Source: Candidatus Methanophagales archaeon
Lineage (GTDB): Archaea; Halobacteriota; Syntropharchaeia; Alkanophagales; Methanospirareceae
Length of the DNA: 64,000 bases
Assembly (NCBI GenBank): GCA_030602585.1
Contig: JAUVZJ010000005.1
Coordinates: 973-64,972 of the forward strand
Direction of reading: 5' to 3'
Shown one piece after another: positions 17,935 to 46,226 of this stretch (positions are counted from its first letter, which is position 1; each line of letters starts with the position of its first letter). The notes under the pieces were generated by a model. It made no database searches and had not been told where the DNA came from. It worked only from the letters and a program-made list of their open reading frames with translations. Made by a program: the position numbers and the translations under genes.

Positions 17935-19648
17935 CCTGAATTTTAGCGATTATAGGCACCATGTATAAATTTGTCGACACCCATCGCGTTCATAAGCAAT
18001 TCTTGCTTTTTGGTGGCTCTTGTGAGTTTACCTCTCACCTTACCTTTATAGGAATATTCAACAAGAGTGAGATTCTTTAGTTCATCCACTGCCAGATCAA
18101 CCGACATATCTATGTTAGCGTTCTTCAACCGGAATTTGACAATTGTTCTTAGCAGGTATGCAAGAAACACGATTGTGAGATACGCATCAATCCGTTCCGG
18201 GCGCTGATAACGAATGGGTCCTAAAGAGAGTACACCTTTCAAGCATCTGAAGGCTTTTTCGATCTCATCCCGCTGGAAATAAATCGTGAAAACATTTTTT
18301 GCACTTATCCTTTGGTCTGTGCAGAACATTAGAAAACGACCGTCGATGAATTCTTCCTGTTGTACAAGATTATCATCCACCCTAAAACCTCGTCTCCCTC
18401 TTTGTTTGACGATCACAGATGAAATGACACCTTTAAGTTCATTAACACGATTCTTATCGGTTGTTTCACTCAACTCTTTGATCATCATGTCTCGATTTGC
18501 TTTTTCCATCGCTTTTTGTGTGGGATTTGAAACAACAACTATCAAACCGGATTGCCCATAAAGGGTTCCTTTCCTACCTTTAACATACACCATCCCTTCG
18601 GAAGACCGTTTCACGGCATTCTCCCATGTAGAAACATCTTCGTCATTCCAGTAAGATAGTTCACTGAACACTTCGCTGCGGGTTTCAGGACAGCAGCCGA
18701 TGATATGGAAACCTTTTTTCCGGGCTATCTTGATGTTTCGCGTGCTCAACATTCCTCTGTCTACAATCATCGGAATACCACGATATCCCCATGATTCGAG
18801 TGCTGCAAGCATATCCTCCATCGTAAGCGTATCGTTCTTAGAACCGGGGATAGCACCGCATCTAACCGGGAAGCCATGCTCTCCTGAAATTACAAATCCA
18901 ACACCAATTGTCCATTTGCCTCGCTGCGATAGAGTATAGCCTTTCTCTGAATAACTACATCCGTTACCAAAGTAAGTTATCTTTGTAACGTCGTAGAACA
19001 GATGCTTTCTGCTTTCGGAATCAAGCTTTTGACATCTTTCTGCCATTGTCCGCTGTATGGCAAGCCCGACGCCGGATTTAATTCCGTTTTTAACGAAACA
19101 GAGTTGGCTAAGACCGTTGTCCAAATCCACTCTGGTTAGTGTCTGTTGTTTATAGCCTTCCCACTCTGCTAAAGGTGTATTATTTACCCAAGCAGCAGCC
19201 TTTTCCAGAGAAAGTCTATTACATACTTGATTCATTACAAGAGCAAGAACGGGGAAACTTTGAGAAGGACAGTGCTTCTCCAATGCCTTCCGTAGATCAA
19301 TATATTGTGCTGCATCATAATACAGTGCAAGCTTTCCTACAGGGACAGCTCGTTCAATCTCTTCCATTTTATGAGCGGGTGGTATGAGCTTCTCGTTCCC
19401 CTCTTCTCCGGTATCCACACCGAGATACTGAATCACTCTCTGCCTTGTGCTTTTTTCTCTTTGTCCCAATAATTCTCGACTAGATATCTATATTTCCTAC
19501 CTTCCTTTATTTTGGTGCGTATGAATGTCATGGTGCCTAATAGGCACTATGTCATATAAATAGTTTGCGTAATTATCGCTTTATTGTCGATAATAACTCG
19601 GATATGTAGAGATTCAAGGCATGGTGCCTATAAAGCCAAAAATTCAGG
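17935..19648 (-). mobile_element. insertion sequence (~1.71 kb) with ~29-bp imperfect terminal inverted repeats, IS4/IS1634-like
   Basis: Left end cctgaattttagcgattataggcaccatg. The right-end reverse complement is cctgaatttttggctttataggcaccatg. There are subterminal CATGGTGCC repeats and a single 508-aa transposase ORF. No matching target-site duplication (flanks ttataa / atcagt). Confidence 0.75.
17943..19469 (-). CDS. DDE transposase (IS4 superfamily, IS1634-like)
   Basis: 508 aa, fills the IS between the IRs. The family call is from overall size and organisation and is not verified by search. Confidence 0.6.
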   Translation of the reverse strand: MGQREKSTRQRVIQYLGVDTGEEGNEKLIPPAHKMEEIERAVPVGKLALYYDAAQYIDLRKALEKHCPSQSFPVLALVMNQVCNRLSLEKAAAWVNNTPLAEWEGYKQQTLTRVDLDNGLSQLCFVKNGIKSGVGLAIQRTMAERCQKLDSESRKHLFYDVTKITYFGNGCSYSEKGYTLSQRGKWTIGVGFVISGEHGFPVRCGAIPGSKNDTLTMEDMLAALESWGYRGIPMIVDRGMLSTRNIKIARKKGFHIIGCCPETRSEVFSELSYWNDEDVSTWENAVKRSSEGMVYVKGRKGTLYGQSGLIVVVSNPTQKAMEKANRDMMIKELSETTDKNRVNELKGVISSVIVKQRGRRGFRVDDNLVQQEEFIDGRFLMFCTDQRISAKNVFTIYFQRDEIEKAFRCLKGVLSLGPIRYQRPERIDAYLTIVFLAYLLRTIVKFRLKNANIDMSVDLAVDELKNLTLVEYSYKGKVRGKLTRATKKQELLMNAMGVDKFIHGAYNR

Positions 19649-22578: not shown

Positions 22579-23952
22579 ATGAAGGAAAAAAGAGAAAAAT
22601 GGAAAGGATTGATGCTACCGTCTTTGTTCGTGCTGTTAGCGACTGCTGCTTTACTTGCGTGGACGGTTACGGCGGTGCAGGGAGCGGAAGTAGAGAGCGT
22701 GACGAGGTATGCTCCGTCTGGTCCCGCTCCGGAGGCGGAGTTTGACGTGACGTTAAGGATTAACGGTGAACTTCCTTTAGTCGTTGGTATTGTTGAGACG
22801 ATTCCGAGTGGGTTTAGCTTTGTGAGCACAACGCATCCGGCGGACAATTACAGTGTCTCAGGGCAGATGATTGCTTTTGCGGTGATAAACGAAAAGGAGA
22901 TAAAATATAAAGTGATAGCGCCTCCTTCTGGTGAAGGCACTTTCACAGGGAAATGGATAGACATGCTAAGCGAGAAAGAAGGGAACATAGCAGATACTAC
23001 AGTCATAGTCGGTGGTGGAGGTGCGGGCACACAAGAAGAAGAAGTTACACCTACACCAACACCAACGCCAGCAGTTCCTACAGTAACGAAAGCAAGCAGG
23101 GTCGTTCCGGTGATGGAAGCGGAAAAAGAAGCAGCGATGGTTTTCGAGGACATGGACGTTTCAATGATTACGCTGAAAGCGGATAAAAATGTGAACGATG
23201 TGAAGGTTGAGGTCGAGCGAATAGAGAGAACTCCGGACATACCTGAGCCTTCGGGCGTAGCATACACTTATCTCGACATGAATGTGGAAAATACGGCAGG
23301 TGCGAAAATAGAAGGCAGAGTTGAGTTCAAAGTAATGAAATCGTGGCTCGTGGATAACAATATTGACGAGGCAACGGTCAAGCTGAACAGATACGATGAA
23401 AACGAAGGATGGATGGCGCTTCCAACTACAAAGGTCGGTGAGGATGATGAGGGCTTTGTTTATTTCGAAGCAGAAACGCCTGGATTTTCTACGTTCGCAG
23501 TAACCGGTGAGGAGAAAGTGGAAACGGCGTACGTGAGGCTCGATACAATTGCAACTGTAGGAGTTGGAGAACCGCTGGTTGTAACCGGAACCACTAACAG
23601 AAAGGAAGGGTTTCCAATCGTTATCTCGGTTAAGGGACCAACGGAGCTTGCACCTCAGACCGTTAAAGTAGAAAAAGGTACGTTCAACGCAATGTTTGAC
23701 ACAACAGGTGCAATAGGAGGAATGTACACGGTAAAGGTAGATGATGGAGATGGACATACGGATGAAACGACGGTGGAAATTGTAACAGCGGTACCAACGT
23801 CAAGTCCAACGCCAGCATTAGCGTCTGAGGTGCCGGGCTTTGAAGTTACCCTACCAGCACTTTATTTGATACTCGTGGTTTTTTTCGTATCGGTAGCGCT
23901 GATAATAGGGTATGTGTTTGGAATGAGAAGGAAAGGAGGTAATGCGGAATGA
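22579..23952 (+). CDS. secreted cell-surface protein with PT-rich linker and PGF-CTERM archaeosortase signal
   Basis: Signal peptide, TPTPTPTPAVPTVT linker, and a C-terminal SPTPALASEVPGFEVTLPALYLILVVFFVSVALIIGYVFGMRRKG. Confidence 0.7.
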   Translation: MKEKREKWKGLMLPSLFVLLATAALLAWTVTAVQGAEVESVTRYAPSGPAPEAEFDVTLRINGELPLVVGIVETIPSGFSFVSTTHPADNYSVSGQMIAFAVINEKEIKYKVIAPPSGEGTFTGKWIDMLSEKEGNIADTTVIVGGGGAGTQEEEVTPTPTPTPAVPTVTKASRVVPVMEAEKEAAMVFEDMDVSMITLKADKNVNDVKVEVERIERTPDIPEPSGVAYTYLDMNVENTAGAKIEGRVEFKVMKSWLVDNNIDEATVKLNRYDENEGWMALPTTKVGEDDEGFVYFEAETPGFSTFAVTGEEKVETAYVRLDTIATVGVGEPLVVTGTTNRKEGFPIVISVKGPTELAPQTVKVEKGTFNAMFDTTGAIGGMYTVKVDDGDGHTDETTVEIVTAVPTSSPTPALASEVPGFEVTLPALYLILVVFFVSVALIIGYVFGMRRKGGNAE

Positions 23953-25148
23953 AAAAGAAGATAGCTTCTTACTCAATGGTAACGACGCTTCTTGCATTAT
24001 GTACACTACTGATGGTGACGCCGGTGAATGCAACAGATTATCCTTTTAATATTACAGACTCAGCTGGGAGAGAAGTAACGATTCAGATGCCAATAGAAAG
24101 AATAATTGTCTTGAACACCGACGCTGCGGAAGCTGTCAAAGTGCTTGGAGTGGTCGACAATATCGTTGGCGTGGTTGAAGACATAAAAACAAAGAAGAGT
24201 TATTACTTCCCGGAATTGGGGGATACAGAATCTGTTGGCACATGGAGGGAGTTTGATTATGGGGAGATTGCAAAGCTTGCAACGAACGAGACCACAGAGA
24301 AAACAGACCATACACTCGTAATTACTTATACGTTTAAATTAGAGCCTGTTGAAAAATTAAAAGATTTTGAAAATATCACGGTGGTGGTATTTGACTTTTA
24401 TAAGCACGAGACATTGCATGAAGAAGTAACAAAACTTGGGATGGTCCTTAATGCAACAGATGCCGCAGAGGGATATAATAACTGGTGTCAGGCAAAGAGG
24501 ACCGCAGTCACAAATTCTGTTGCGGGTCTTGAACCGGTATCAAGAGAGGAGCTTGCTAATGCGGTTCTGCCATATCTTAGGGCAACATACCTTGGGGAGA
24601 CGGTAGAACATTTAGAGCTGGATAGGTTGAGAAGGCTTGCTTGGTTCCATTCTTACGAACTGACGCCATGGGTATTCATAGAAGGAACGGTAACGGGATT
24701 GGGAGACATTGCGAGCAAGGGACCCGGGTCTGCCGACCACATCATGTGCACCATGGCAGGTGGCTATAACGTCGCAAGTGATTTGGACAAAGCGTATCCG
24801 CATGTAGAGTGGGAAGAGGTCTTGAAGTGGAATCCAGATGTGATAATCAAAGGAGTATACACGGATGACTGGGGCTGGAGCAGCATTGACGAGCCTGAAG
24901 GACTGATAGACGAAATTAAGGGCCGACCAAGTGCGGAAAGCATATTTGCAGTGAAGGACGACAGAGTTTACGCATTCTGTAATGAACCACTCTATGGGTT
25001 GGATAGTGTCGTTGGACTCACATATTGGGCTAAATTGATTCATCCCGAGCTAAACTTGGATCCAGAAGAAGTTTACAGGGAGTATCTAACGAAATTCATG
25101 GGTGGTATATCATACGGAGATGCGATATTCGTGTATCCGGAGGTGTGA
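23949..25148 (+). CDS. ABC substrate-binding protein, FecB/BtuF-like (Peripla_BP_2 class III)
   Basis: Signal peptide. ITDSAGREVTIQMPIERIIVLNTDAAEAVKVLGVVDNIVGV is typical of siderophore/corrinoid binding proteins. Confidence 0.75.
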   Translation: MKKKIASYSMVTTLLALCTLLMVTPVNATDYPFNITDSAGREVTIQMPIERIIVLNTDAAEAVKVLGVVDNIVGVVEDIKTKKSYYFPELGDTESVGTWREFDYGEIAKLATNETTEKTDHTLVITYTFKLEPVEKLKDFENITVVVFDFYKHETLHEEVTKLGMVLNATDAAEGYNNWCQAKRTAVTNSVAGLEPVSREELANAVLPYLRATYLGETVEHLELDRLRRLAWFHSYELTPWVFIEGTVTGLGDIASKGPGSADHIMCTMAGGYNVASDLDKAYPHVEWEEVLKWNPDVIIKGVYTDDWGWSSIDEPEGLIDEIKGRPSAESIFAVKDDRVYAFCNEPLYGLDSVVGLTYWAKLIHPELNLDPEEVYREYLTKFMGGISYGDAIFVYPEV

Positions 25149-25151
25149 AAG

Positions 25152-26369
25152 ATGAAGAAAGTGTTAGCTTGTATGTTGGTAGTGATGCTTCTTGCATCGT
25201 GTTTGTCGATGGCGGTTGTGCCTGTGAGTGCGCAAGACAGTGTGCCTTCCACTGATGAAGAAATAGAAGAAGTAGCGAGGGCTGTGCTTTCCAATGAAAT
25301 CATGCTGTATCTTAGAGCAACATATTTTGGTGAAGGAATAAATCATCTTTCATTAGAAGAACTGAGGGAATCGGCGAGTTATTATCCGCAGTATCCACGA
25401 CAGATTACGGATTCTGCTGATAGAACGGTGACGATATACAAGCCGGTGGAAAGAATTATTCTCCAACCCACAGCGTCATATGAACCAGTTTGGGTCATTG
25501 GAGCACAAGATAAAGTCGTGGGTGTGACCACAACTGCACTGAAGGAGGAAGACTATTCATGGCTTCCAGGAATCCAAGATAAGCCACCTGTTGGCGCCTA
25601 CAAAGAGCTTGATTACGAGAAGATAATGGAACTCGAGCCGGATATTGTAATAAGTAGTAAGAGTAAAGCAGAGGAGACGAGTGAAAAATTAGAGCCGGCT
25701 GGTATAACAGTAGTTGCACTGAACTTCGTTGAGATAGAAAAGTTTGATTCCGAGCTTAAAATCCTCGCAAAAATACTTGGAAAAGACGAAAAAGCGGAAG
25801 AGTTCATCTCGTGGAGACAAAACCATTTTGATCTGATAAAAGAGAGAACAGAAGGAATAGAACCAAAGGTGCGAGTTTATGTTGAATATCCTGGTACGCT
25901 CTGGGGAACCGGTGGAGAAGGTTCAAGCGGACACTCTGTGATAACAACTGCGGGTGGTTATAACATCGCTGGTGATGAGGTCGGATATTTTGGCTATGTT
26001 GATCAAGAATGGGTCGCTAAAGAGAATCCAGAGGTAATATTCTTTCCAGCATTTGCTGAGTTTGGACAGACGGCTCTCACTGGATACTTCATGGATAGCC
26101 ATGAAAATGCGGAGCAATTTATAGAGGAGGCATGCAATCGAACAGGTCTAAAGGAGACAGATGCAGTAAGCAATGGCAGTGTCTATGTAATCGATGGCTG
26201 TAGTACGTTAGCAGCATGCAGAAGTATCATTGCAGCTCTCTATTGCGCCAAGTGGTTCTACCCCAAACAATTTGAGGACTTAGAGCCGGAGAAAATTCAC
26301 AGGGAATACTTTGAAGAATGGCTCGACGTGGAATATAAAGGAATATGGGTTTATCCGCTATTAGATTAA
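25152..26369 (+). CDS. ABC substrate-binding protein, FecB/BtuF-like paralog
   Basis: ITDSADRTVTIYKPVERIIL...VIGAQDKVVGVT. Close paralog of 29771-30997. Confidence 0.75.
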   Translation: MKKVLACMLVVMLLASCLSMAVVPVSAQDSVPSTDEEIEEVARAVLSNEIMLYLRATYFGEGINHLSLEELRESASYYPQYPRQITDSADRTVTIYKPVERIILQPTASYEPVWVIGAQDKVVGVTTTALKEEDYSWLPGIQDKPPVGAYKELDYEKIMELEPDIVISSKSKAEETSEKLEPAGITVVALNFVEIEKFDSELKILAKILGKDEKAEEFISWRQNHFDLIKERTEGIEPKVRVYVEYPGTLWGTGGEGSSGHSVITTAGGYNIAGDEVGYFGYVDQEWVAKENPEVIFFPAFAEFGQTALTGYFMDSHENAEQFIEEACNRTGLKETDAVSNGSVYVIDGCSTLAACRSIIAALYCAKWFYPKQFEDLEPEKIHREYFEEWLDVEYKGIWVYPLLD

Positions 26370-26536
26370 AAACATGAAAGCAGTGGAGAACACAGGAACA
26401 ACAAAAAGTAAAAAGTTTATTAGGAGGGAGGTCCTTTTGTTTCTTCCTCGCTTTTTTATTTCAAAAAAGAGGGAATTAGGTTCAAATATGTGCAAGAGGG
26501 CAATATCTCAGGAGTATTTCTCTTCTTTTAAATGAG

Positions 26537-27016
26537 ATGGAACGAGTGGCAAAATATGCTGTGGATATAGGATTTTACTGCAACTTCTTCCCTTATCCGA
26601 AAGGTTTTAGTATAAATGCTGCCTTAACCAGACAAGAATATCACCGTGCCATAGAAAATATCGAATCTCTCATTGAAAAGTATCCAAAAAAGGTGTTTAT
26701 AGACTTCCCCCTTGCTGGAGCAACGAATAGGTCGTTGAGAAACATCTGTCCGGCAGTTTTTATTAGCTCACATATTGATGTAGATGGACATCTTAGACTT
26801 TGTAAGTACTCTTCAAAGAAGATTGGATCACTTGAGGAATCATCTTTGATCGATCTTTGGAACAAACAAAGGAATGAAGTGAAAAAGCTGAACCACCTTA
26901 GCTCAAACTGTGAGTTATATCCTGATTGTGGAGGAGGTTGCTTAGCTAATAAAACTGAATATGGTATAGACTATTATTGCCTGAGGTATGCAAATGAACG
27001 AAATAATCAAGGCTGA
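26537..27016 (+). CDS. SPASM/twitch-domain fragment of a radical-SAM maturase (N-terminal radical-SAM core absent)
   Basis: C-terminal Cys pattern LRLCKYS...DLWN...CELYPDCGGGCLANK is typical of SPASM domains. The in-frame upstream stop at 26528 leaves no CX3CX2C region. Confidence 0.5.
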   Translation: MERVAKYAVDIGFYCNFFPYPKGFSINAALTRQEYHRAIENIESLIEKYPKKVFIDFPLAGATNRSLRNICPAVFISSHIDVDGHLRLCKYSSKKIGSLEESSLIDLWNKQRNEVKKLNHLSSNCELYPDCGGGCLANKTEYGIDYYCLRYANERNNQG

Positions 27017-27929
27017 ACACCTGGAAAAGGTATTTGGAGACCAGAAAGCCGTAGATAATCTCTCCTTTACTGTTCACAGAGGTGAGACTTTAGGGTTGCT
27101 CGGACCCAACGGTGCTGGAAAGACAACGACGATTAAGATGTTGATAGGACTCATCAAGCCAACAAGAGGCGGAGCAATTATCGGTGGATATGATGTCCAG
27201 GAAAACCCAATAGAAGTGAAGGAATTATTTGGCATATCTCCACAGGAGCTCAGCTTCGACCATCATCTCAGCCTGATAGAGGATTTGTATTTCTATGTGA
27301 GGCTCTATGGTTTATCGAGAAAAGAAGCGAAAGAAAGAGTAAAGGAGACATTAAAATGGGCAAGATTAGAAAACCATGCTGAAAAGATAGGCTATCAACT
27401 CTCTGGCGGGATGCAGCGCAGATTGCTTATGGCAAGGGCAATGGTCACAGATCCCCCAATTCTGTTCTTGGACGAGCCAACGACTGGTCTCGACCCCCAA
27501 GCTCGGCATGCTTTATGGGATTACATTTTGGACTTAAAAGAAAGAGGAAAGACGATCATTTTAACCACGCATTATCTTGAGGAGGCGGAAATGCTGTGTG
27601 ACCGGGTGATTATCATTGATTACGGCAAAAAAATCGCAGAAGGCACGCCTGATGAGCTTAAGCATATCCTCAAGGTAGAGAATATAGTTACCATAAAGCC
27701 CAGGAATTCAATCAGCCAGAGAGTCATAGAAGAAATCAAGGAATTTACAGGCGTTGAAGACGCTATCTGGCATGATAGCTCGCTAAAAATATATCTAAAA
27801 GATGAATATGTGTTAGAGTTGATTATAAGTCTAATTTTAACGGATGCGGGAATTTTAGAAATGGACATCAAAAGAGCGAGCTTAGAAGATGTGTTTTTAC
27901 ATTTAACTGGAAAGGAGCTGAGGGAATGA
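26988..27929 (+). CDS. ABC-2 type exporter ATPase
   Basis: Walker A GPNGAGKTT, signature LSGGMQRR, Walker B LFLDEPTTGLD. Confidence 0.8.
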   Translation: MQMNEIIKAEHLEKVFGDQKAVDNLSFTVHRGETLGLLGPNGAGKTTTIKMLIGLIKPTRGGAIIGGYDVQENPIEVKELFGISPQELSFDHHLSLIEDLYFYVRLYGLSRKEAKERVKETLKWARLENHAEKIGYQLSGGMQRRLLMARAMVTDPPILFLDEPTTGLDPQARHALWDYILDLKERGKTIILTTHYLEEAEMLCDRVIIIDYGKKIAEGTPDELKHILKVENIVTIKPRNSISQRVIEEIKEFTGVEDAIWHDSSLKIYLKDEYVLELIISLILTDAGILEMDIKRASLEDVFLHLTGKELRE

Positions 27930-28681
27930 AAATGATAAGAGCTCTCAAGGCGATTACCATTACATTTGAGCGTGAGTTGTATGACTTTTACAAGAACCTC
28001 TTTCACTACTCGCTCAGGAGCTTGCTAACTCCAACATTGTACCTCTTAGTTATTGGTATTGGATTGGGGTCAATGGTTGACATGTCAGATGATGTCTCCT
28101 ACATACAATTCTTAATTCCAGGTATCTTAATGATGACCACAGCACAGGTGACACACCTTCACCTCGGCTTTGAAGTTTTGGCTGCGAGAACCTATGAAAA
28201 GTACCTGGAGCTGCTAACCATGGTCGCACCAATTCGTCCTTATGAAGCTGTCATAGGTTATATACTCACAGGGGTTATGATTGCCATTTTTAACGTGATA
28301 ATTTTTCTTATCCCCATATACATTTTCTTCCACACAATCTTTGTATCGCTTCCTCTTCTATTACTCTTTACCGTCGGCTTGGGCATCTTATTCTCAGCAA
28401 CAGGCTTCTCCGCTGGTATATACTTTGATGATCCACACCATATGAGCATCGTAAATTCACTTGTCATAACGCCCCTCTCTTTTCTATGTGGTGTCTTCTT
28501 CCCTCTCGATCTCTATCCAGAGCAAATTCGGCTTTTAGTAGAACTCGTTCCTCTCACCCAGGCAATTGAAGGTCTGCGTGGTAATGGTATTCTCTTATTC
28601 CAAGTTGGGTATGTGTGGCTAACAGCGATAATAGCTGTTGTTTTAGCCATAGTAATCTTTAAAAGAAAGATGATAATATGA
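27926..28681 (+). CDS. ABC-2 family permease
   Basis: 6 TM segments, coupled to the 26988 ATPase. Its 3' end is duplicated at 31133-31343. Confidence 0.7.
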   Translation: MKMIRALKAITITFERELYDFYKNLFHYSLRSLLTPTLYLLVIGIGLGSMVDMSDDVSYIQFLIPGILMMTTAQVTHLHLGFEVLAARTYEKYLELLTMVAPIRPYEAVIGYILTGVMIAIFNVIIFLIPIYIFFHTIFVSLPLLLLFTVGLGILFSATGFSAGIYFDDPHHMSIVNSLVITPLSFLCGVFFPLDLYPEQIRLLVELVPLTQAIEGLRGNGILLFQVGYVWLTAIIAVVLAIVIFKRKMII

Positions 28682-28794
28682 GGATGTGGGTAATGAAAGA
28701 CATTCTGAAGTTGGGGGTGTTAGATTTAAGAAAAGGATACTGATTTAAAGTTTAATTATAGGAAACACCAAACAATTTTGTGAAGTGAAGACCT

Positions 28795-29049
28795 ATGAAA
28801 TCGATAAGCATACCCGAGGATGTATTAATCTCGATAAAAATACCCGAGAAGGATATGGAACAGGAATTAAAGCGGGAATTAGCCACCGCTCTATACCAAA
28901 GGGGGGTTATTTCACTGGGTAAAGCGAGAAAATTAGCTGGGATGAGCAAATGGGAATTTATAGAGGAATTAGGGAAAAGAAAAATCGAAAGGCATTACAC
29001 AGAAAGAGAATTGGAGGAGGACTTAGCCTTTGCCAAAAGTGGTAAGTAA
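28795..29049 (+). CDS. UPF0175-family antitoxin
   Basis: 84 aa (LISIKIPEKDMEQELKRELATALYQRGVISLGKARKLAGMS). Overlaps the downstream DUF3368-like ORF. Confidence 0.6.
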   Translation: MKSISIPEDVLISIKIPEKDMEQELKRELATALYQRGVISLGKARKLAGMSKWEFIEELGKRKIERHYTERELEEDLAFAKSGK

Positions 29050-29254
29050 TTCATCGCCTCTGATCCAGTTAGCCAAGATTGGGCAGCTAAACCTATTGAA
29101 ACACTTTTTTAATGAGATAGGTGTTTTAATAAGGGCGAAAGACGAGGGAAAGATAGCAAGTTTAGGAGAGATCTTAGAGAAGCTAAAAGAAACTGGATTC
29201 TGGATAAGTGATGATTTATACACCAAGATTCTGAGAGAAGGCGGGGAGTTATGA
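29030..29254 (+). CDS. DUF3368 (PIN-like) toxin remnant, internally deleted
   Basis: The N-terminus VVSNSSPLIQLAKIGQLNLL has Asn in place of the first catalytic Asp and is joined directly to the C-terminal LIRAKDEGKIASLGEILEKLKETGFWISDDLY segment. The middle ~80 aa are missing. Confidence 0.5.
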   Translation: MPKVVSNSSPLIQLAKIGQLNLLKHFFNEIGVLIRAKDEGKIASLGEILEKLKETGFWISDDLYTKILREGGEL

Positions 29255-29259
29255 GTATA

Positions 29260-29575
29260 TTGATGATGGTAATATAGATGATTCTTGCATGATGCTATGT
29301 TCTGTGGAGTGCCCTCCCAGAAAAGGATATGAAAAATAATATTATGTAACACTTGATTTATCACAAAATCGATAAATGAATTTTCTCTATAATATCAAAA
29401 CCGAAAATATTTTTATTAATTATAACAAGAATTTGTTAATATCTTACATGAAGGACAAGATAAAAACGAAAATATGGGCGATGAAAAGCGGTGGGTGAGG
29501 GAAGGGATATGGCTAAATAGTGCCACTTACGTGATGCAATATGTGGCGAAGGTGGAAGAAGAAGGAGAAAAAGGA
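29260..29575 (+). promoter_or_regulatory. conserved ~320-bp upstream leader (copy 1) with palindrome TTTATCA-N6-GATAAA and TATA-like box
   Basis: About 80% identical to 33489-33815. Palindrome at 29357-29376, ttttattaattataa at 29411-29425. Precedes the binding-protein gene 29771. Confidence 0.5.
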
Positions 29576-29588
29576 GGTGATGTGAAAA

Positions 29589-29774
29589 ATGAGTGCGAAG
29601 CAGTTTGATCAAACTTTCTTAAAGTTTGTTGCGAAACGTTTTGAAGAATGTTTGAAGGATTATGAACACGACCCAAAGGAGTGCACGCCAGAGCAGATAA
29701 GAGAGTGCCATGGCGATATTGAAGTTGAACGACACCCTTGCGGAGCGGGAAAAATGGGGGGTAATGTGAAATGA
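29589..29774 (+). CDS. small Cys4/His protein, hypothetical (possible metal-binding)
   Basis: 61 aa, EEC..KEC..RECHGD..HPC. The stop overlaps the binding-protein start (ATGA). Confidence 0.35.
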   Translation: MSAKQFDQTFLKFVAKRFEECLKDYEHDPKECTPEQIRECHGDIEVERHPCGAGKMGGNVK

Positions 29775-30997
29775 AAACGAAAAGGATAACATCTATTGTA
29801 TTGGTAATGGTGCTTCTTGCATCTGCGTTGCCATTGGTGGTTATGCCCGCGGCTGCACAACAAGCAGGAATACCATGTGATGATGGGAATAATGAATTAA
29901 CGAGAGATGAACTTGTGAATGCAATTCTTCCATACATGCTCGGTGAAGGCTCTCACACTTTAGATGAGGTTAGAGATGCTGCGTGGGTATATGCATATTG
30001 GGATGGAAAGCCGGAAGAGATTACGGATTCTGCTGGTAGAGAGGTGACGATATGCAGACCGGTAGAAAGAATAATTCCTATGTCCTCGTGGTCCTATGAA
30101 CCCATTTGGATCCTCGAAGCACAGGATAAAGTGGTGGGTGTGACCTCAACTCTAAAAGAAAGCGCTGGTGCATGGCTTCTAGGAATCCAGGATAAGCCAA
30201 CCGTTGGCACCTACAAAGAGCTTGATTACGAAAAGGTACTCGAAGTTAACCCACAGATTGTAATCACCGGTTCAAACAAGGCAGAAGAAATTGCAGAAAA
30301 ACTAGCGCCTGCTGGTATAACAGTAGTTGCAATGAGCTTCAGAAGTCAAGAAAAATTCGATAACGATCTTAAAATCCTCGCGAAAATACTGGGGAAAGAT
30401 GAAAGAGCAAGAGAATTCATTTCGTGGAGACAGAATTGTATAGACGAGATCAAAGAAAGAACAGAGGAGTTGGAACCAGAAGAGAAGATAAAGGTGTATG
30501 GTGAAAGTAACGCACGATTCTGGCTTACTCCCACGAAAGATTCGGGCTTCCACGGAGTAATAACAACGGCAGGCGGTAACAACATCGCAGGTGACCTCCC
30601 TGGTAAATATGTCGATGTTGAATCGGAGTGGGTTGTTAATGAAAGTCCTGAGGTAATAGTTATTGCAGCAACAATGAGTGATTGGATTCCTGGTCCCGGT
30701 CTCGATTATTTTGCAGATGAATCTGATATCGCCGACACGAAACAATACTTAGAAGAAACTTACAATCGAACAGGTCTAATGGAGACGGACGCAGCAAAAG
30801 AGGGTCGTGTTTATTTGCTCCATGGCTACGTAGCGGAAGGAGCATGCCGTTCCTTCGTCGGAGTTGGCTATTGCGCCAAGTGGTTCTACCCAGAACAATT
30901 TGAGGACTTGGAACCAGAGGAATATCACAGGGAATACTTTGAAGAATGGCTCGACATGGAATACAAAGGAGTCTGGGCTTATCCGCCAGTGAGTTAG
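29771..30997 (+). CDS. ABC substrate-binding protein, FecB/BtuF-like paralog
   Basis: ITDSAGREVTICRPVERIIP...ILEAQDKVVGVT. Nearly colinear with 25152-26369. Confidence 0.75.
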   Translation: MKTKRITSIVLVMVLLASALPLVVMPAAAQQAGIPCDDGNNELTRDELVNAILPYMLGEGSHTLDEVRDAAWVYAYWDGKPEEITDSAGREVTICRPVERIIPMSSWSYEPIWILEAQDKVVGVTSTLKESAGAWLLGIQDKPTVGTYKELDYEKVLEVNPQIVITGSNKAEEIAEKLAPAGITVVAMSFRSQEKFDNDLKILAKILGKDERAREFISWRQNCIDEIKERTEELEPEEKIKVYGESNARFWLTPTKDSGFHGVITTAGGNNIAGDLPGKYVDVESEWVVNESPEVIVIAATMSDWIPGPGLDYFADESDIADTKQYLEETYNRTGLMETDAAKEGRVYLLHGYVAEGACRSFVGVGYCAKWFYPEQFEDLEPEEYHREYFEEWLDMEYKGVWAYPPVS

Positions 30998-31132: not shown

Positions 31133-31343
31133 ATGATACTCTTTTCTATGTGGTGTCTTCTTCCCTCTCAATCTCTATCCAGAGCAAATTCGGCTTTTAG
31201 TAGAACTCGTTCCTCTCACCCAGGCGATTGAAGGTCTGCGAGGGAATGGCATTCTCTTATTCCAAGTCGGGTATGTCTGGATAACAGCGATAATAGCTGT
31301 TGTTTTAGCCATAGTAATCTTTAAAAGAAAGATGGTAATCTGA
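31133..31343 (+). pseudogene. duplicated 3' fragment of the ABC-2 permease gene
   Basis: >90% nucleotide identity to 28467-28681, including the stop and downstream aggatgtg..aatgaaaga. Confidence 0.75.
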
Positions 31344-31632
31344 GGATGTGAATAATGAAAGATTGGAGCGAAGAGTGGAAGAAGAGACGTTCTGAGGCTG
31401 GATGGAAGGGGAATCGCAAAAGAAAAGCTTCTCCTGTTTTACTCGTGATTATGATATATCATATAAATCATTGCTAAAGCAGCTCGTCCATCTGGACATG
31501 GATTCTGAGGAAAGGGTGCGTGATTATTTGAAAAAGAGTAACAGACTCCTTAAAAAGAACGGAGAACTTTGGGTAAGGTGTAAATATAGGGATGCACTGA
31601 TTTGGTATCGGAAAGAATGACGAGAAGTAAAG

Positions 31633-33135: not shown

Positions 33136-33489
33136 TTATTTTGCTACCAGCTTTTCAATACTTTGTATTCGATAGTTCAATTGGTCAATATACCCTATCC
33201 TTTTTTCAATCTCGTCTATTCTAACTTCAAGTTTTGCAGACTTCCTAATTTCTTCGATAAGCACCTCTCTCGTTTTTTCATGCGAATTATCGATTTTTGG
33301 GAGTACTTCTCGTCTATCCTCTCTTATATCCGCTCTCAACTCAGAGATACTATTTTCTACACTCGCCAGCCTTTTGTTCATTTGTTTAAGTTCTCCCACA
33401 ACTTCTCTCAATTCGGGCACCAAAAAATCCTGAACCGCTTTTCTAAATCCGCCTACTATCTTTTCCTCGTCCATTTCTCTCATTATCAT
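33136..33489 (-). CDS. coiled-coil hypothetical protein
   Basis: 117 aa, heptad-rich and charged. No recognisable domain. Confidence 0.35.
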
Positions 33490-33815
33490 GATTGATGATA
33501 GTAATATAAATGACTTTGTATGATGCTATGTTCTGGAATGCCCTCCCGGAAAAGGATATGAAAAATAATATTATGTAACACCTAATTTATCACAAAATTG
33601 ATAAATGATTTTTCTCTATAACACCAAAACCGAAAATTTTTTTATTAATTATAATAAAAATCTGTTAATGTCTTACATAGAGTTAAGATAAAGAGGGAAG
33701 ATAGGAGGGATAGGGAATAAAAAAGGAATGGCTAAGAGGAGAGAGATGGGTATATGGCGCTCCTTGCGTGATGCGATATGGGGCGAAGGTGAAAGAAGAA
33801 GGGGGGCGATAAAAA
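33489..33815 (+). promoter_or_regulatory. conserved ~320-bp upstream leader (copy 2)
   Basis: Palindrome tttatcacaaaattgataaa at 33586-33605, TATA-like tttttattaattataa ~33639-33655. Precedes the binding-protein gene 33909. Confidence 0.5.
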
Positions 33816-33908
33816 GATGAGAAAAGGAAAGGGAATAGTAGAAAGCGTGAATACACTTTCTTTTAGAAAAAGAACCTGTGCTAAGAAAACAATAGGAGGT
33901 GGTGAGGA

Positions 33909-35152
33909 ATGAGGATGGTATTATCTATTGTATTGGTGATGGTGCTTCTTGCATCTGCGGTGCCGACGGCGGTTGTGCCGGCGGCTGCAAATCCAGCAGG
34001 AATATCTAGAGAATACAAGGAACTATTCGAAGGAGACAACGAACTGACGAGGGACGAACTTGTAGAGGCAATAGTTTCTCATATGCTCGAAGAAGGAAGT
34101 GCTTTACAAATAGACGAGTTGAGAGATGCTGCTCATGTCTATGTATATTGGGACGGGGAGCCGAAGACGATTACGGAATTTGCTAATCCCCCAAGAACGG
34201 TGACGATATACAAGCCGATAAAGAGGATAGTTCCCCTGACTACCGAAGCTACTGAAGCAATACGCACACTTGGAGCTACCGATAAAGTAGTCGGCGTTAG
34301 TAAATATGTCATAGGGGATGAGTTGTTCTACCCGGAATTTAGTGATTATCCTAACCTTGATAGCCCATGGACAGACCTCGGAGTACTAGCAGAACGATTA
34401 TTAGAGTGCAATTCCGATGTGGTCCTCACGTATACAAAATATCCTACACCACCTGCTCTTGAAGAGAAGCTCGAAGGCACCGGCATCACAGTGATTCGTT
34501 TTGATTTCAGCAAGCCTTCAAATTTTGTTGAAGAGGTAAACAACCTTGGTTACATCCTCGAGAAGGAGGATGAAGCCAACGAATTCATAGATTTTTACAG
34601 TAACTATATGGACGAAATAAGTGATGCGGTAGAAACGGGAGATAAACCAAAAGTTTACCTCGAAGCTGACTTCGGGAGTGGTCATGAGAAGTACTATACC
34701 TGCGGTGAAGGGCATGGGCATCATGAACTGATTGTATTAGCTGGTGGTAATAATATCTTTGCTGATGTTAGCTATGGCGGAGAAATAGGTGTAGAAGATG
34801 TGATGGATCGAGACCCTGAGATTATAATCAAGTATAAATGGCCTGCTGGTGGTTTTGATGGGGATATAGAAGAGTTGAAAGCGATAAGAGAAGAGATATT
34901 GGGGCGAGAAGAGTTGCAGGATGAACCCGCGGTGAAGAATGAGACTGTATATGTATTCACATGGTATAACGTGGAGGTGCAAGGTATTTTCTGGGCATGG
35001 GCTATCTAGCGAGGTGGTTCCATCCGGGATTAGATATTGACCCACAGGGAATTTATCAAAAATATCTAACAGACTTCCAAGGACTGAATATTGATTTGGA
35101 TAATGCTGCACTCGTGTATCCCGAAAAGCCAGTTTGTGACGAACCAGCATGA
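33909..35152 (+). pseudogene. FecB/BtuF-like substrate-binding protein with a frameshift near 34990
   Basis: ORF 33909-35009 ends ...VQGIFWAWAI. The conserved C-terminus GYLARWFHPGLDIDPQGIYQKYLTDF...ALVYPE continues in the +2 frame to the stop at 35150-35152. Confidence 0.65.
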
Positions 35153-35313: not shown

Positions 35314-36906
35314 ATGAGGGTAACAGCAATAACATGGGGAAGTGATATGGCATTGCTCGTCAATGCATGCAAGGAGCTTGGAATAGAGTTAGACGCGTGG
35401 TCTACACATGATGTGGAAGAAGAGAAGGAGCGAAGGGAGTGCATAAAATCTTTTGAGCAGGCGGACATCGTCCTCTTACATCCGTCAAATGAGGAATATT
35501 GGGATGAGATAGTTGAGAGACGGAATAAAGATATGCCAACGATCTCTTTTGGGCATGATTCATCCTTCTGGTGGCTTTCAAACGTTCCCTTAGAGGTTGT
35601 TGCAACGGTCAATGCCTACCATGTATACGGAGGGGCAGAGAACATAACGAATATGCTCAGGTACATCGGAAAAGAGGTCTTAGGTCTGGATTATAAATAC
35701 GAGAATCCAAAGGAGACGATGTGGCAGGGAATATATCATCCGGATGCCGAAACTGCTTTCGAGAGCATAGAGGACTATTTCGCATGGCATAAACCTTCGC
35801 ACAAACACAAAGTTGGCATTCTCTTCTTTCGTACATATTGGGCAAACAGAGACCTTGAGATCGTGAATGCACTAATTCGTGAATTGGAAAACGAGTTTGA
35901 TGTAATTCCAGCCTTCTGCTATGGACTGGGTGATAAAGAATTAGGTGCTAAATCGAGCGGTGAAGTCATTGAAGCATTCTTCATTAACAGGATTGATGCA
36001 CTCATAAACCTTCAATCTGTCTTTCATGCTGGAAGCAATGAAGGCTCTGTCAATGCACTGAAAAAACTCGATGTCCCGGTATTCCACCCACTAATGGCAT
36101 ACTACAATACAGAAGAAGAATGGAGAGCGGATACTCAAGGAATAAGCAGCATGGAGGTTGGCTGGAGTGTTGCGATGCCAGAATTAGAGGGCGTAATCGA
36201 ACCGATAATTATCGGAGCATCAAGAAGAGATAGCGATAATGATTTTGAGCGACATACGCAGATAGATGAAAGGGCGAAAAAGATTGTGAATAGGGTGAAG
36301 AGATGGATAGAGCTAAAAGATAAACCTAAATCCAAAAGAAGAGTTGCATTTATCCTCCATAACACTCCCTGTGCAAGCGTTGAGGCAACAGTAGGAAGCG
36401 GTTCACATCTTGATACCCTGGAGAGTGTAGCAAGGATACTGAAACAGATGAAAGATGCAGGATATTCGGTTGATACGCCTAAGGACGGCGAAGAGCTTGT
36501 AGAGACCATCATGGATCGCAAAGCAATTTCTGAGTTCCGATGGACAACTGTGGATGAAATCGTAAGTAAAGGTGGTGCACTTGCGCTGATAAGCAAGGCG
36601 GATTATGAAATGTGGTTTGATACCTTTGACCAAAGAGTGAAGGAAAGGACGTGTGAAGCATGGGGAAATCCGCCTGGCGAAGAAAAGAATGGTGTCCCCG
36701 CAGCAATGGTTTACAATGGTAAAATCGTGGTAACAGGCGTTCGATATGGAAACGCAGTGGTGTGCGTTCAGCCGAAGCGAGGCTGTGCTGGTTCAAGATG
36801 CGATGGGCAGGTCTGCAAGATACTTCACGACCCTGAAGTGCCTCCTCCTCATCAATACCTCGCAAAACCTATCATTACCTGGAAACTACCTTCGGTGCAG
36901 ACGTGA
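35314..36906 (+). CDS. cobN: CobN/ChlH-family chelatase large subunit, N-terminal part (gene split by frameshift)
   Basis: CobN-like throughout, ending ...PPPHQYLAK then out of frame. An A4 run at 36864-36867 is the likely indel site. Confidence 0.7.
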   Translation: MRVTAITWGSDMALLVNACKELGIELDAWSTHDVEEEKERRECIKSFEQADIVLLHPSNEEYWDEIVERRNKDMPTISFGHDSSFWWLSNVPLEVVATVNAYHVYGGAENITNMLRYIGKEVLGLDYKYENPKETMWQGIYHPDAETAFESIEDYFAWHKPSHKHKVGILFFRTYWANRDLEIVNALIRELENEFDVIPAFCYGLGDKELGAKSSGEVIEAFFINRIDALINLQSVFHAGSNEGSVNALKKLDVPVFHPLMAYYNTEEEWRADTQGISSMEVGWSVAMPELEGVIEPIIIGASRRDSDNDFERHTQIDERAKKIVNRVKRWIELKDKPKSKRRVAFILHNTPCASVEATVGSGSHLDTLESVARILKQMKDAGYSVDTPKDGEELVETIMDRKAISEFRWTTVDEIVSKGGALALISKADYEMWFDTFDQRVKERTCEAWGNPPGEEKNGVPAAMVYNGKIVVTGVRYGNAVVCVQPKRGCAGSRCDGQVCKILHDPEVPPPHQYLAKPIITWKLPSVQT

Positions 36907-39074
36907 TTATCCATGTAGGAACGCATGGAAACCTGGAATTTTTGCCTGGTAAATCTGTTGCACTTTCAGAAAGCTGTTACCCCGATATAGCTATCGGAAA
37001 TCTGCCTCATCTATACATATATAATTCTGATAATCCCCCGGAAGGGACAATTGCAAAGAGAAGAAGTTATGCAACGCTCATAGACCACATGCAAACCGTT
37101 ATGACAGAAAGTGGTTTGTATGGTGACTTAAAGGAGCTTGAAGACCTTATCGCAGAATATAACAAGACAAAAACATCGGATAAGGCAAGGGCACATGCCC
37201 TGGAGCACATTATTATTGATTTGATAAGGAAAACGAAACTATCAGAAGAGATAAAGCTTGATAAAAAGTTAGAGAGTGGGCATTCCTTTGAGAAAATAAT
37301 AGACATTGCACATGAGGCTATCACTCGCATATACAACACGCAGATTCCTGATGGTATGCATATCTTCGGTGAAGTTCCAGAAGGTGATAAGAAGGTTGAG
37401 TTCATCAACTCGATACTGAGACATGATTCAGAGCTAAGGAAATTGATTTTCGAGCTTATGGGACTCGATATTCAGCCTTCAGAGGCGGAAAGCGAGTTTT
37501 TAGCCGAGGTGGATAGTATTGCAAAGGAATTTATTTCCGCTTTCTTGGCTGAAGAAGAGCATTTAGAAGCAGCGAAGGGGATATTGGGCGATAGATTGAA
37601 GATAAAAGATGAGAATAAGCTTTCTCTGATGAGAGAAAAGGTAATGGATATTTCTTCAAGGATAGAAGCATCGGATGAGATGGGAAGTTTGTTTCACGGA
37701 TTCGATGCAGGATATATCGAACCAGGACCTTCGGGGCTCATAACAAGGGGTAAGCCAGAGATACTACCAACAGGCAGGAACTTTTATTCCCTCGACCCTT
37801 TCAAGATTCCAACAAAGGCTGCATGGGAGATTGGTAAGCGACTTGCGGATGGCGTGATAAGGAAATATGAAGAGGAGAACGAAAAGCTTCCCGAAAACAT
37901 CGCGATGTACTGGATGGCATCCGATATCATGTGGTCAGATGGAGAGCAGTTCGCACAGATATTGCATCTAATCGGCGTAGAGCCTGTCTGGAAAGATGGA
38001 AGGGTAAAAGGATACCGGATAATTCCTTTGGAAGAGCTCGGTCGCCCCAGAATAGATGTCACGGTAAGAGTGAGTGGGATTACGAGAGATTGCTTTTACA
38101 ATTGCATCGAACTTTTAGACGAGGCGATACATGAGGTTGCAATGCTTGACGAGCCCATGGAAAAGAACTATTTGAGAAAGCATGTATCGGCATTGGGGAA
38201 CGTGCGTGAAAATACAAATGAAAATGGGACTGAATTTGCGCGTATATTCGCAAGTAAGCTTGGAACTTACGGGAATGGTGTAAATTTAGCGGTATATGCA
38301 TCGGCATGGAAAGAGGAGAAGGATTTGTCGGATGTGTTTGTGCATTGGAACGGGTATGCCTACGGGAAAAACAATTTTGGTGTTGAAGCGCATGATAGTT
38401 TTGTATCACAGCTTAAAACCGTTGATTTGACTTTCAATAAGACGGTTACAGATGAATACGACCTGTGCGGCTGTTGTTGCTACTTTGGAACGCACGGTGG
38501 ACTCACAACTGCTGCACGAGAGATCTCTGGACACGATGTTTCAGCATATTATGGCGATACGAGAGACCAGAATAAGATAGAAGTAAGAAGCCTTGCAGAC
38601 GAGATGAGAAGAATTGTTCGTTCCAAGTTACTAAATCCAAAGTGGATAGAAGGGATGAAACGTCATGGATACAAGGGTGCAGGGGACATATCAAAACGAA
38701 TAGGAAGAGTTTACGGTTGGGAAGCGACAACGCAGGAGGTAGACGACTGGATATTTGATGACATTGCAAGGACGTTCGTTTTAGATAAAGAAATGAGAGA
38801 GTTCTTTGAGGAGACTAATCCATGGGCGCTTGAGGAGATTGGAAGGAGGTTGTTGGAAGCTTATGAGCGCGGATTATGGGATGCAGACGAAGAAGTGATT
38901 GAAGGATTGAAGAGCGCATACCTTGAGATGGAAGGGTGGATAGAAGAGAAGATGGGCGATGCGAAAGGAGATTTTCAAGGAGGGGCGATAGATGTGATGA
39001 CGATGGAGGATGTCGAGGCATTGGCGGCTAAGATGAAAGACAAGCAGAAGGAGTGGAAAAAGTCGCTTCTTTAA
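36903..39074 (+). CDS. cobN: CobN/ChlH-family chelatase large subunit, C-terminal part
   Basis: The +2 frame from ~36866 reads KTYHYLETTFGADVIIHVGTHGNLEFLPGK, the CobN signature. It continues for 723 aa. Confidence 0.7.
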   Translation: MIIHVGTHGNLEFLPGKSVALSESCYPDIAIGNLPHLYIYNSDNPPEGTIAKRRSYATLIDHMQTVMTESGLYGDLKELEDLIAEYNKTKTSDKARAHALEHIIIDLIRKTKLSEEIKLDKKLESGHSFEKIIDIAHEAITRIYNTQIPDGMHIFGEVPEGDKKVEFINSILRHDSELRKLIFELMGLDIQPSEAESEFLAEVDSIAKEFISAFLAEEEHLEAAKGILGDRLKIKDENKLSLMREKVMDISSRIEASDEMGSLFHGFDAGYIEPGPSGLITRGKPEILPTGRNFYSLDPFKIPTKAAWEIGKRLADGVIRKYEEENEKLPENIAMYWMASDIMWSDGEQFAQILHLIGVEPVWKDGRVKGYRIIPLEELGRPRIDVTVRVSGITRDCFYNCIELLDEAIHEVAMLDEPMEKNYLRKHVSALGNVRENTNENGTEFARIFASKLGTYGNGVNLAVYASAWKEEKDLSDVFVHWNGYAYGKNNFGVEAHDSFVSQLKTVDLTFNKTVTDEYDLCGCCCYFGTHGGLTTAAREISGHDVSAYYGDTRDQNKIEVRSLADEMRRIVRSKLLNPKWIEGMKRHGYKGAGDISKRIGRVYGWEATTQEVDDWIFDDIARTFVLDKEMREFFEETNPWALEEIGRRLLEAYERGLWDADEEVIEGLKSAYLEMEGWIEEKMGDAKGDFQGGAIDVMTMEDVEALAAKMKDKQKEWKKSLL

Positions 39075-39171
39075 GGAGGTCGGGTGAAGAGGTGAAATTA
39101 GACTCTGCTAATAAAAATCGTAATCCACCCATCCGAGGTGTAAACAGAAAAACATATAAACGCCTTAGAAA

Positions 39172-46151: not shown

Positions 46152-46226
46152 TGGGGTTGCTGAGATTTGAACTCAGGTCTCGGCGTCCCGAACGCCGAAG
46201 GATAGACCAAGCTACCCTACAACCCC
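46152..46226 (-). tRNA. tRNA-Pro (anticodon CGG), no encoded CCA
   Basis: Manual fold of the reverse complement GGGGTTGTAGGGTAGCTTGGTCTATCCTTCGGCGTTCGGGACGCCGAGACCTGAGTTCAAATCTCAGCAACCCCA gives a 7-bp acceptor, D arm, anticodon loop TTCGGGA, T arm CTGAG/TTCAAAT/CTCAG. Confidence 0.8.

Follow-up and report, generated by a model that had tools for sequence, protein, structure and literature searches.

Several described systems invite comparison with the DNA ahead of metal- or corrinoid-uptake-type genes in archaea. MDR1, a DtxR-family protein, controls a metal ABC-transporter operon in Archaeoglobus fulgidus, and archaeal repressors usually bind across the TATA box or the start site. At the RNA level, the Escherichia coli ompA leader exemplifies stabilization of an mRNA by a 5' stem-loop, and the archaeal machinery of 5'-end-dependent decay differs from that of bacteria. 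In other systems RNase P/Z is known to act on minihelices and on tRNA-like "t-elements", examples being those of plant mitochondrial mRNAs, the MALAT1 mascRNA, and a tRNA-like element that adjoins the haloarchaeal 5S rRNA. The cobalamin and NiCo riboswitch classes are, to our knowledge, not established in archaea of this type. Here we compare with these systems a pair of homologous non-coding segments, copy A and copy B, in a 64,000-nucleotide stretch of a Candidatus Methanophagales archaeon (contig JAUVZJ010000005.1, positions 973 to 64,972; hereafter the window), each of which precedes a small open reading frame (ORF) and a gene for a Peripla_BP_2 binding protein.

The two segments are probably paralogous versions of an archaeal promoter-leader cassette that heads an operon of the small ORF (ORF61) and the binding-protein gene, has been spread or homogenized by recombination, and works as a promoter with a low-structure leader. 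From 5' to 3', such a cassette would consist of an AT-rich module with a dyad, a B recognition element (BRE) and TATA box, an inverted repeat at the start site, a purine-rich leader of ~125 nt, and a strong Shine-Dalgarno sequence. All features below lie on the plus strand unless stated otherwise; the dyads are assigned to no strand.

Extent, mosaic identity, and relatives of the repeated segment

Copy A (29258-29588) and copy B (33490-33816) are homologous over ~330 bp each. The original prediction had described them as ~80% identical non-coding sequences, and this is borne out by a MAFFT alignment of 29230-29600 with 33460-33920, which has a mean column identity of 78%; a repeat search of the window recovers 29305-29482 and 33534-33711 as a gap-free match of 84% identity. 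The conserved leader motifs that it had listed (atggctaa, cgtgatgc, ggcgaaggtg, and aagaagaagg) can all be read in both copies. Probes of 18 nt and 30 nt from the upstream module match at these two sites and nowhere else in the 64 kb, where 0.14 and 0.01 matches would be expected by chance, and the repeat is therefore far above chance. Searches with nhmmer and a covariance model detected no further copies in the window or in the related loci collected, a hit at 39021-39096 (13 bits, E 0.26) being a purine-rich chance match. An origin as a mobile element, that is, a miniature inverted-repeat transposable element or the end of an insertion sequence, was rejected: the 64 kb hold only two copies, no inverted partner exists for the 5' end ATTGATGATGGTAATATA, and viral contigs gave no match.

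Conservation between the copies is distributed in blocks. Identity is 89% across the upstream module (29258-29427) and 88-92% across 29301-29445, falls to ~52% across 29446-29505, rises again to 80% across 29506-29566, and is undetectable in the stretch beyond 29566. The copied unit is larger than first noted and comprises the upstream module, the leader, ORF61, and the Peripla_BP_2 gene into its signal peptide, the signal-peptide DNA (29795-29855 versus 33925-33985) being ~90% identical as against ~57% for the genes overall and thus forming another locally homogenized segment. A third signal-peptide copy at 25145-25231 is 62-70% identical to those of binding proteins A and B.

A close relative of the locus was found on a JGI contig (L001) with a homolog of the binding protein that is 82% identical, and with syntenic UPF0175, ABC, ABC-2, and binding protein A genes of 89-97% DNA identity. 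This contig carries two leader copies. The first, L001a (~9640-9819), is syntenic with copy A and retains everything from the core promoter to the binding-protein gene, leader and ORF61 included, with unrelated DNA in place of the upstream module; the second, L001b (14605-14941), has the full module and leader. The module of copy A is 94.7% identical to L001:14605-14776, a value that is unexceptional between these genomes because their best-conserved syntenic genes are 89-97% identical. A more distant locus, L004, encodes a binding protein 67% identical to that of the window and has in common with it the core promoter ATAACATCAAAAyC..AAAT..TTTTATTAA, a purine block (GCGAAGGTGAAAG), and a hairpin position near the start site. 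The similarity is thus not limited to one duplication, a limitation that would have told against the original prediction: beyond L001 and L004, relatives of the leader occur in three further loci (L002, L005, and L006; class II leaders, below).

In both genomes the identity is mosaic. The two ORF61 copies of L001 are 98.9% identical and the binding-protein genes behind them 63%, and in the window the module, leader, and binding-protein genes are 89%, 69%, and 57% identical, respectively. This pattern points to copying of the front end or to gene conversion: the non-coding DNA would be more alike than the genes behind it because recombination or gene conversion has copied the cassette between paralogous binding-protein loci or homogenized it there.

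Degenerate leader patterns run against genome and metagenome contig collections gave only chance matches (L003 from Pseudolabrys, L007, and L008), and scans of viral contigs were empty. The leader as a universal part of operons for ORF61 or for ribosomally synthesized and post-translationally modified peptides (RiPPs) was rejected: ORF61 homologs in other metagenomes (L009-L021) lie inside operons that lack it, as do the RiPP clusters L022-L030. The leader is therefore lineage-specific and obligatory to neither operon type.

The upstream module, core promoter, and dyad

The upstream modules of both copies are AT-rich, with a GC content of 24-26%. That of copy A (29258-29439; 26% GC) is intergenic DNA that holds both the dyad and the core promoter and begins at a sharp boundary, ATTGATGATGGTAATATA, 4 nt past the stop codon of a shortened DUF3368 gene. 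That of copy B (33490-33669) begins directly past the start codon of a divergent gene on the minus strand (33136-33489). Direct reading of both copies suggests archaeal-type promoter elements: a BRE-like CCGAAAA followed by the TATA-like run TATTTTTATTAATTATAA in copy A (29401-29425, with the run at 29410-29425) and by TTTTTTTATTAATTATAA in copy B (33630-33654, with the run at 33637-33654), from which transcription of copy A is predicted to start at about 29438-29450. The core ATAAyAyCAAAAyC..AAAT..TTTTATTAA is kept in five loci, namely copies A and B, both L001 copies, and L004, and persists in L004 and L001a though the remainder of the module differs there.

The dyad of copy A, ATTTATC-N8-GATAAAT (29356-29377), has 7-bp arms and encloses the palindrome TTTATCAcaaaatCGATAAA (29357-29376). 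In copy B it reads ATTTATCA-N6-TGATAAAT (33585-33606), with arms of 8 bp and the palindrome TTTATCAcaaaatTGATAAA at 33586-33605, and in L001b the arms are 7 bp long, as in copy A. The original prediction had placed this palindrome about 50 bp upstream of a TATA-like box; it does lie upstream of the box in both copies, at a spacing of 34 nt from its end to the TATA-like run.

That the dyad is the operator of a dimeric regulator, either metal-responsive or the antitoxin of a neighboring toxin-antitoxin pair, acting on the plus-strand promoter and possibly on a divergent one, is a real if minority possibility, and it is compatible with the cassette reading. All three full modules have an intact dyad, with its arms lengthened in copy B. 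It stands ~35 nt upstream of the plus-strand TATA, next to gaaaaataatattat (29331-29345), which could be a TATA-like run of the minus strand, and the edge of the module is also the start of a divergent gene in copy B and L001b. L004 retains a diverged dyad around the same CAAAAT center, symmetric at 7 of 9 positions, and the downstream genes, of metal/corrinoid uptake type, adjoin CobN and ChlI/D-like genes. Taken alone, however, the palindrome is statistically unremarkable: of the dinucleotide shuffles of the AT-rich module, 26% contain a dyad whose arms reach 7 bp or more, and 9% one whose arms reach 8 bp or more. The dyad occurs only in the three full modules (copy A, copy B, and L001b), and its conservation there carries no independent weight because these modules are 88-95% identical overall. 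A search for the palindrome, which the original prediction had proposed as a genome-wide check, was run on the 64-kb window, the related loci collected by then, and viral contigs, and found nothing beyond the full modules. L001a lacks the dyad yet retains promoter, leader, and genes, the diverged dyad of L004 is ~17 nt nearer to the TATA box, and a site at this distance lies outside the region that archaeal repressors usually occupy. Pfam and NCBIfam scans of ~40 window ORFs detected no regulator gene, whether of the DtxR, Fur, NikR, Lrp, or TrmB type, the only nearby DNA-binding candidates being toxin-antitoxin antitoxins (UPF0175 and AF2212-like). Hence, of the shared transcription-factor site proposed originally, what stands is a pair of homologous regulatory regions with a promoter, and not a dyad that exceeds chance.

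The leader

An inverted repeat marks the predicted transcription start, TATCTT-N11-AAGATA in copy A (29440-29462) and GTCTTA-N8-TAAGAT in copy B (33670-33689). Its pairing is kept in copy B as GUCUUA/UAAGAU, with a G.U pair, and in L001a as GUCUUAC/GUAAGAU, and L004 has a different hairpin at the same position. Retention partly through G.U pairs slightly favors an RNA stem over a DNA site, and the repeat would then give the mRNA a 5' stem-loop.

The leader proper of copy A (29463-29588) is 75% purine and 8% C, contains no T run of four or more, and ends in the Shine-Dalgarno sequence GGAGGTGAT (29573-29581); that of copy B (33690-33816) is 79% purine and 7% C. The purine fraction of the copy B leader, 0.787, is the maximum of any 126-nt stretch of the window, and that of copy A is 0.754. 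Within the leader lies a single conserved hairpin, which in copy A (29522-29547) has a 7-bp stem GCCACUU/AUGUGGC, including one U.U, around the 12 nt ACGUGAUGCAAU, and in copy B (33759-33765/33778-33784) the stem GCUCCUU/AUGGGGC. This stem occupies the same positions in all seven leaders; the window copies form six of the seven pairs, with one U.U. At its fourth position A-U is replaced by C-G or U.G, and several C/U changes lie opposite G. The 3' strand of the stem runs into a conserved purine block, GGCGAAGGTGGAAGAAGAAGG (29545-29565; 33782-33802 in copy B), which holds a Shine-Dalgarno-like AGGTG and has the core GCGAAGGTG in both L001 copies, the version GCGAAGGTGAAAG in L004, and the version GCGATGGGG in the class II leaders.

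The minimum-free-energy z-scores of the leaders, from -0.3 to -1.6, indicate folding no better than that of shuffled sequence, and RNAalifold applied to all seven leaders returns only one short stem of -3.1 kcal/mol. High purine content and weak folding fit a sense-strand mRNA leader with little structure. The leader would thus be largely unstructured apart from the one 7-bp hairpin, which it keeps together with the block GGCGAAGGUGRAAGAAGAAGG.

Several other identities of the module and leader were rejected. Plus-strand upstream ORFs from the conserved ATGGCTAAG end at very different points (10, 18, 30, and 34 codons), with indels displacing them in L001b, and numerous non-synonymous changes and indels set the minus-strand ORFs apart from one another, so that protein coding was dismissed. 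TGATGA-like motifs at 29260-29300 raised a C/D box small RNA or a kink-turn as candidates, but no CTGA is suitably placed on either strand, and the C/D-box Rfam matches score 12-22 bits against gathering scores of 43-50. The runs of G that might form a G-quadruplex are not kept in copy B.

Class II leaders and a tRNA-like minihelix

Each class II leader separates a binding-protein gene from a short precursor-like ORF (..EWKLELDEFEFAGCM..), with genes for radical S-adenosylmethionine (SAM)/SPASM proteins, PqqD, a B12-radical-SAM protein, a methyltransferase, and an ABC exporter downstream. In nhmmer searches copy B as the query matches L005 with E=1.8e-6, and L005 as the query matches copy B with E=4.6e-6. 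A covariance model of the class II leaders finds copy B at 33725-33815 (26.3 bits, E=7e-5) and copy A (20.5 bits, E=0.003), with no other credible match over 182 kb. Judged by these alignments, the window leaders are homologous to the class II leaders, and may have been derived from, or have a common ancestry with, the leader of a RiPP-like precursor/radical-SAM operon.

This wider distribution bears on the view, which appears unlikely, that the similarity of the two copies simply records a recent duplication or gene conversion within a region that is rearranging and decaying, with at least copy B non-functional. Gene remnants do abound in the window, namely a SPASM fragment (26537-27016), an ABC-2 fragment (31139-31362), a short DUF3368 gene, a short ORF61, a frameshifted binding protein B, a split CobN, and a DDE transposase, and the ~180 nt contiguous at roughly 90% identity resemble a conversion tract. 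Against this, the mosaic in which a block of 52% identity is followed by one of 80% points to constraint and not to one tract. Moreover, the leader core is recognizable in the class II loci, distant as they are, and L004 has the promoter core; therefore at least those parts are under long-term selection.

The class II leaders contain a minihelix (L005:3148-3180, L006:1686-1718, and L002:12988-13020) made up of a 7-bp acceptor-like stem, a single bulged G, and a 5-bp stem closing UUCGAAU (or UUCAAGU). The 5-bp stem and its loop correspond to an exact tRNA T-arm (GGTTCGAATCC in L005 and L006, GGTTCAAGTCC in L002, with the T-loop GGUUCGAAUCC), and the minihelix is followed by a second hairpin, GGGGG-loop-CCCCC. 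The 7-bp stem forms all seven pairs in L002 and L006 and six of seven in L005, and 93% of the cells of the class II structure are paired, versus 48-67% when the 3' partners are slid. The window copies have the 11-nt CGTGATGCrAT where the T-arm stands in class II and lack the second hairpin, and the covariance model marks all of their T-arm pairs (5-bp stem with a 7-nt UUCRAAU-type loop) and hairpin-2 pairs as broken; the 7-bp acceptor-like stem is retained. By position and pairing, the window hairpin thus appears to be a vestige of the class II acceptor-like stem, the minihelix having probably collapsed to a simple hairpin. A tRNA-gene fragment or integrase attachment-site remnant is an unlikely source of the T-arm because the 5' strand of the 7-bp stem directly adjoins it, and the 3' half of a tRNA would not supply that strand.

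One could suppose that the conserved hairpin is a processing or stability signal inherited from the minihelix, with RNase P, tRNase Z, or another structure-specific nuclease setting the mature 5' end, but we consider this quite unlikely for the window copies. The architecture of the class II stem, with its exact T-loop and excess of pairing over the slid controls, is of the kind that these enzymes cleave in minihelices and t-elements, and the 7-bp stem stands at the homologous position in both window copies, with an A-U to C-G exchange. Yet the T-stem and T-loop are missing from the window copies, the three class II sequences show no compensatory changes, being too similar to show them, and no tRNA is called by ARAGORN in L002, L005, and L006 or by a permissive Rfam scan of the L005 leader; cleavage itself is a prediction from sequence. 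ARAGORN calls a single tRNA in the window (tRNA-Pro, 46152-46226) and none in L001, L002, L004, L005, and L006. Similarly doubtful is the broader proposal that the whole leader family is a cis-acting archaeal RNA built on the tRNA-like minihelix. Cleavage of the latter by RNase P/tRNase Z, or its binding by a T-loop protein, would then determine where the mRNAs of RiPP-like (possibly metallophore) operons and their partner binding-protein operons begin, how stable they are, or how they are translated, and the window copies would be derived members with the outer stem and the GGCGAAGGUG block retained. A limited literature search found no description of archaeal mRNA leaders with a tRNA-like minihelix.

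Related RiPP-like clusters whose radical-SAM protein is 75-89% identical lack the leader and have ~60 nt between the binding-protein and precursor genes. Positions 26369-26530 of the window correspond to the sequence that immediately precedes the class II promoter, and a SPASM C-terminal fragment (26537-27016) follows directly; thus the canonical class II leader and RiPP genes have been deleted from this genome. The cluster remnant as a whole spans 26369-28681, in which the SPASM fragment is followed by ABC and ABC-2 genes. RiPP-like clusters beside Peripla_BP_2 genes were seen at L002:12983-21042, L005:3245-11356, L006:1783-7130, and L022-L030, on archaeal and some bacterial metagenome contigs. 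They consist of a short precursor, two or three radical-SAM/SPASM genes, PqqD, a B12-binding radical-SAM protein, a methyltransferase, and a DrrA-like ABC and ABC-2 exporter.

The riboswitch hypothesis

The leader was originally proposed to be a structured 5' untranslated region (UTR), possibly a metal- or corrinoid-responsive element, and a riboswitch scan and a covariation analysis were suggested as checks. Rfam 15 at gathering score yields no match to a riboswitch or cis-regulatory family over the whole window, and at E <= 10 no riboswitch family in 29200-29800 or 33450-33950, the chance matches to small nucleolar RNAs, a CRISPR repeat, and microRNAs being far below threshold; the cobalamin (RF00174) and NiCo (RF02683) models do not match even at E <= 10. 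Across the seven related leaders the sole shared stem is the 7-bp one, with a single compensatory change (A-U to C-G). No terminator-like T run of four or more is present in leader A, the only one of copy B lying beyond the leader at 33861, and neither copy on reading contains a pyrimidine stretch complementary to GGAGGTGAT. A ligand-sensing riboswitch for a metal ion or corrinoid is therefore very improbable here: a BtuF/FhuD-type binding protein adjoining CobN is a typical bacterial context for the cobalamin and NiCo classes, and a 60-nt leader block is 80% kept between diverged copies with one covarying stem, but a composition of 7-8% C and 75-79% purine makes a multi-helix aptamer impossible, the folding scores are those of shuffled sequence, the leaders have neither a terminator T run nor a stretch to sequester the Shine-Dalgarno sequence, the two hairpins that structure the class II relatives are missing, and closely related operons do without any such leader. 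The hypothesis fails all the tests that could be run and is unsupported, and the leader probably does not sense a ligand through RNA.

Interpretation and significance

Given the above observations, the cassette may be best understood as an ordinary promoter with a stabilizing, translation-permissive leader, at whose dyad a DNA-binding regulator possibly acts. Some features sit uneasily with this interpretation. The 80% conservation of 29506-29566 beside ~48% divergence just upstream suggests a constraint that an unstructured leader does not account for, and with about five independent leader lineages collected a weakly structured RNA element is possible. The start site and the assignment of the leader to the UTR are themselves predictions. 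The sharp 5' boundary common to the modules recurs in three different contexts, and the cassette reading offers no explanation for it.

If this interpretation is correct, the finding is an ordinary one, a promoter-leader cassette shuffled among paralogous uptake operons of an uncultured archaeon, and it removes a false riboswitch lead. A lineage-specific leader family common to binding-protein and RiPP-like radical-SAM operons hints at joint expression of a secreted peptide and putative uptake proteins, and the exact T-arm minihelix in the mRNA leaders of related genomes could be a type of processing signal new to archaea. The analysis also draws attention to ORF61, an uncharacterized small protein, rich in Cys and His, whose translation is coupled to that of these binding proteins.

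Downstream genes and genomic neighborhood

The original prediction had placed the repeats upstream of two binding-protein genes; Peripla_BP_2 genes do follow, with a small ORF intervening in each copy. Behind copy A, the 61-codon ORF61 (29589-29774) overlaps through an ATGA the start of binding protein A (29771-30997), which was identified by a profile match. ORF61 belongs to no Pfam or NCBIfam family; its homologs (P0121-P0131) share the motif ECLKDYEHDPxECTPEQIRECHGD..EEHxC and are ATGA-coupled to a Peripla_BP_2 gene in every locus seen, and the Cys/His-rich protein may be a metal-binding partner of the binding protein. Behind copy B, a 31-codon remnant (33817-33912) is homologous to ORF61 only in its C-terminal dozen or so codons and is likewise ATGA-coupled to binding protein B (33909-35152). 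The first ORF of the latter (33909-35009) breaks frame near 34995, and homology to the C-terminus of its paralogs (GMGYLARWFHP...) continues in the ORF 34997-35152, indicating either a pseudogene or a homopolymer assembly error.

Copy A is preceded by a UPF0175/DUF3368 toxin-antitoxin pair, whose DUF3368 (PIN-like) gene (29030-29254) has 74 codons here versus 162 in L001. The minus-strand gene adjoining copy B (33136-33489) encodes a coiled-coil protein. Downstream of binding protein A, the 224 nt of 31139-31362 repeat the 3' end of an ABC-2 permease gene (28477-28700) at 95% identity; L001 has an intact ABC/ABC-2 pair at this position, and the window has therefore undergone a deletion or rearrangement. 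The wider window contains the split CobN, a ChlI/D-like ATPase, FecCD and ABC components, a NifH-like protein, Ftr, and ribosomal proteins, a gene content that points to a methanogen-, methanotroph-, or Archaeoglobus-like host. CobN (35314-39074) is divided into two ORFs of 530 and 723 aa that overlap by 4 nt (36903-36906) and jointly cover the full CobN profile. A 457-aa PGF-pre-PGF domain protein (22579-23952) directly precedes two binding-protein genes, and in L009 and L010 a 417-aa protein with no Pfam match likewise precedes ORF61 homologs. Large paralogous repeats with peptide/nickel-type ABC transporter genes are found at 5455-7244 versus 12437-14226; nearby are a 1011-aa ORF (9382-12417) of two internally repeated halves with an SBP_bac_5 domain (two matched stretches) and a DDE transposase on the minus strand (17943-19469).

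Comparison with known systems

The window leaders resemble the cobalamin and NiCo riboswitches in being long conserved leaders before a Peripla_BP_2 gene in a CobN-containing cluster, and differ from them in having too little C and U for multi-helix aptamers and no expression platform. With the t-elements, the class II relatives share a 7-bp stem stacked on a 5-bp T-loop stem within an mRNA leader, known here from sequence alone; the window copies keep the 7-bp stem and have lost the T-arm, and neither group has a D arm or an anticodon arm. The MDR1 system of Archaeoglobus fulgidus is alike in its BRE-like purines before an A/T octamer, its nearby dyad, and its metal-type ABC uptake component; the host of the window, too, is a methanogen- or Archaeoglobus-like archaeon. 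It differs in that the window dyad, by the predicted site and start, lies ~35 nt upstream of the TATA box and overlaps neither this nor the start site; the dyad is also not known to resemble the DtxR, Fur, or NikR boxes, and no regulator gene is nearby. The ompA-type 5' stem-loop stabilizers are matched by the inverted repeat of 6-7 bp situated exactly at the predicted transcript start; the pairing of this repeat is kept, through G.U pairs and sequence changes, in four copies, and in L004 another hairpin takes its place. Here the start is a predicted one, and a DNA site at that position would account for the repeat equally well.

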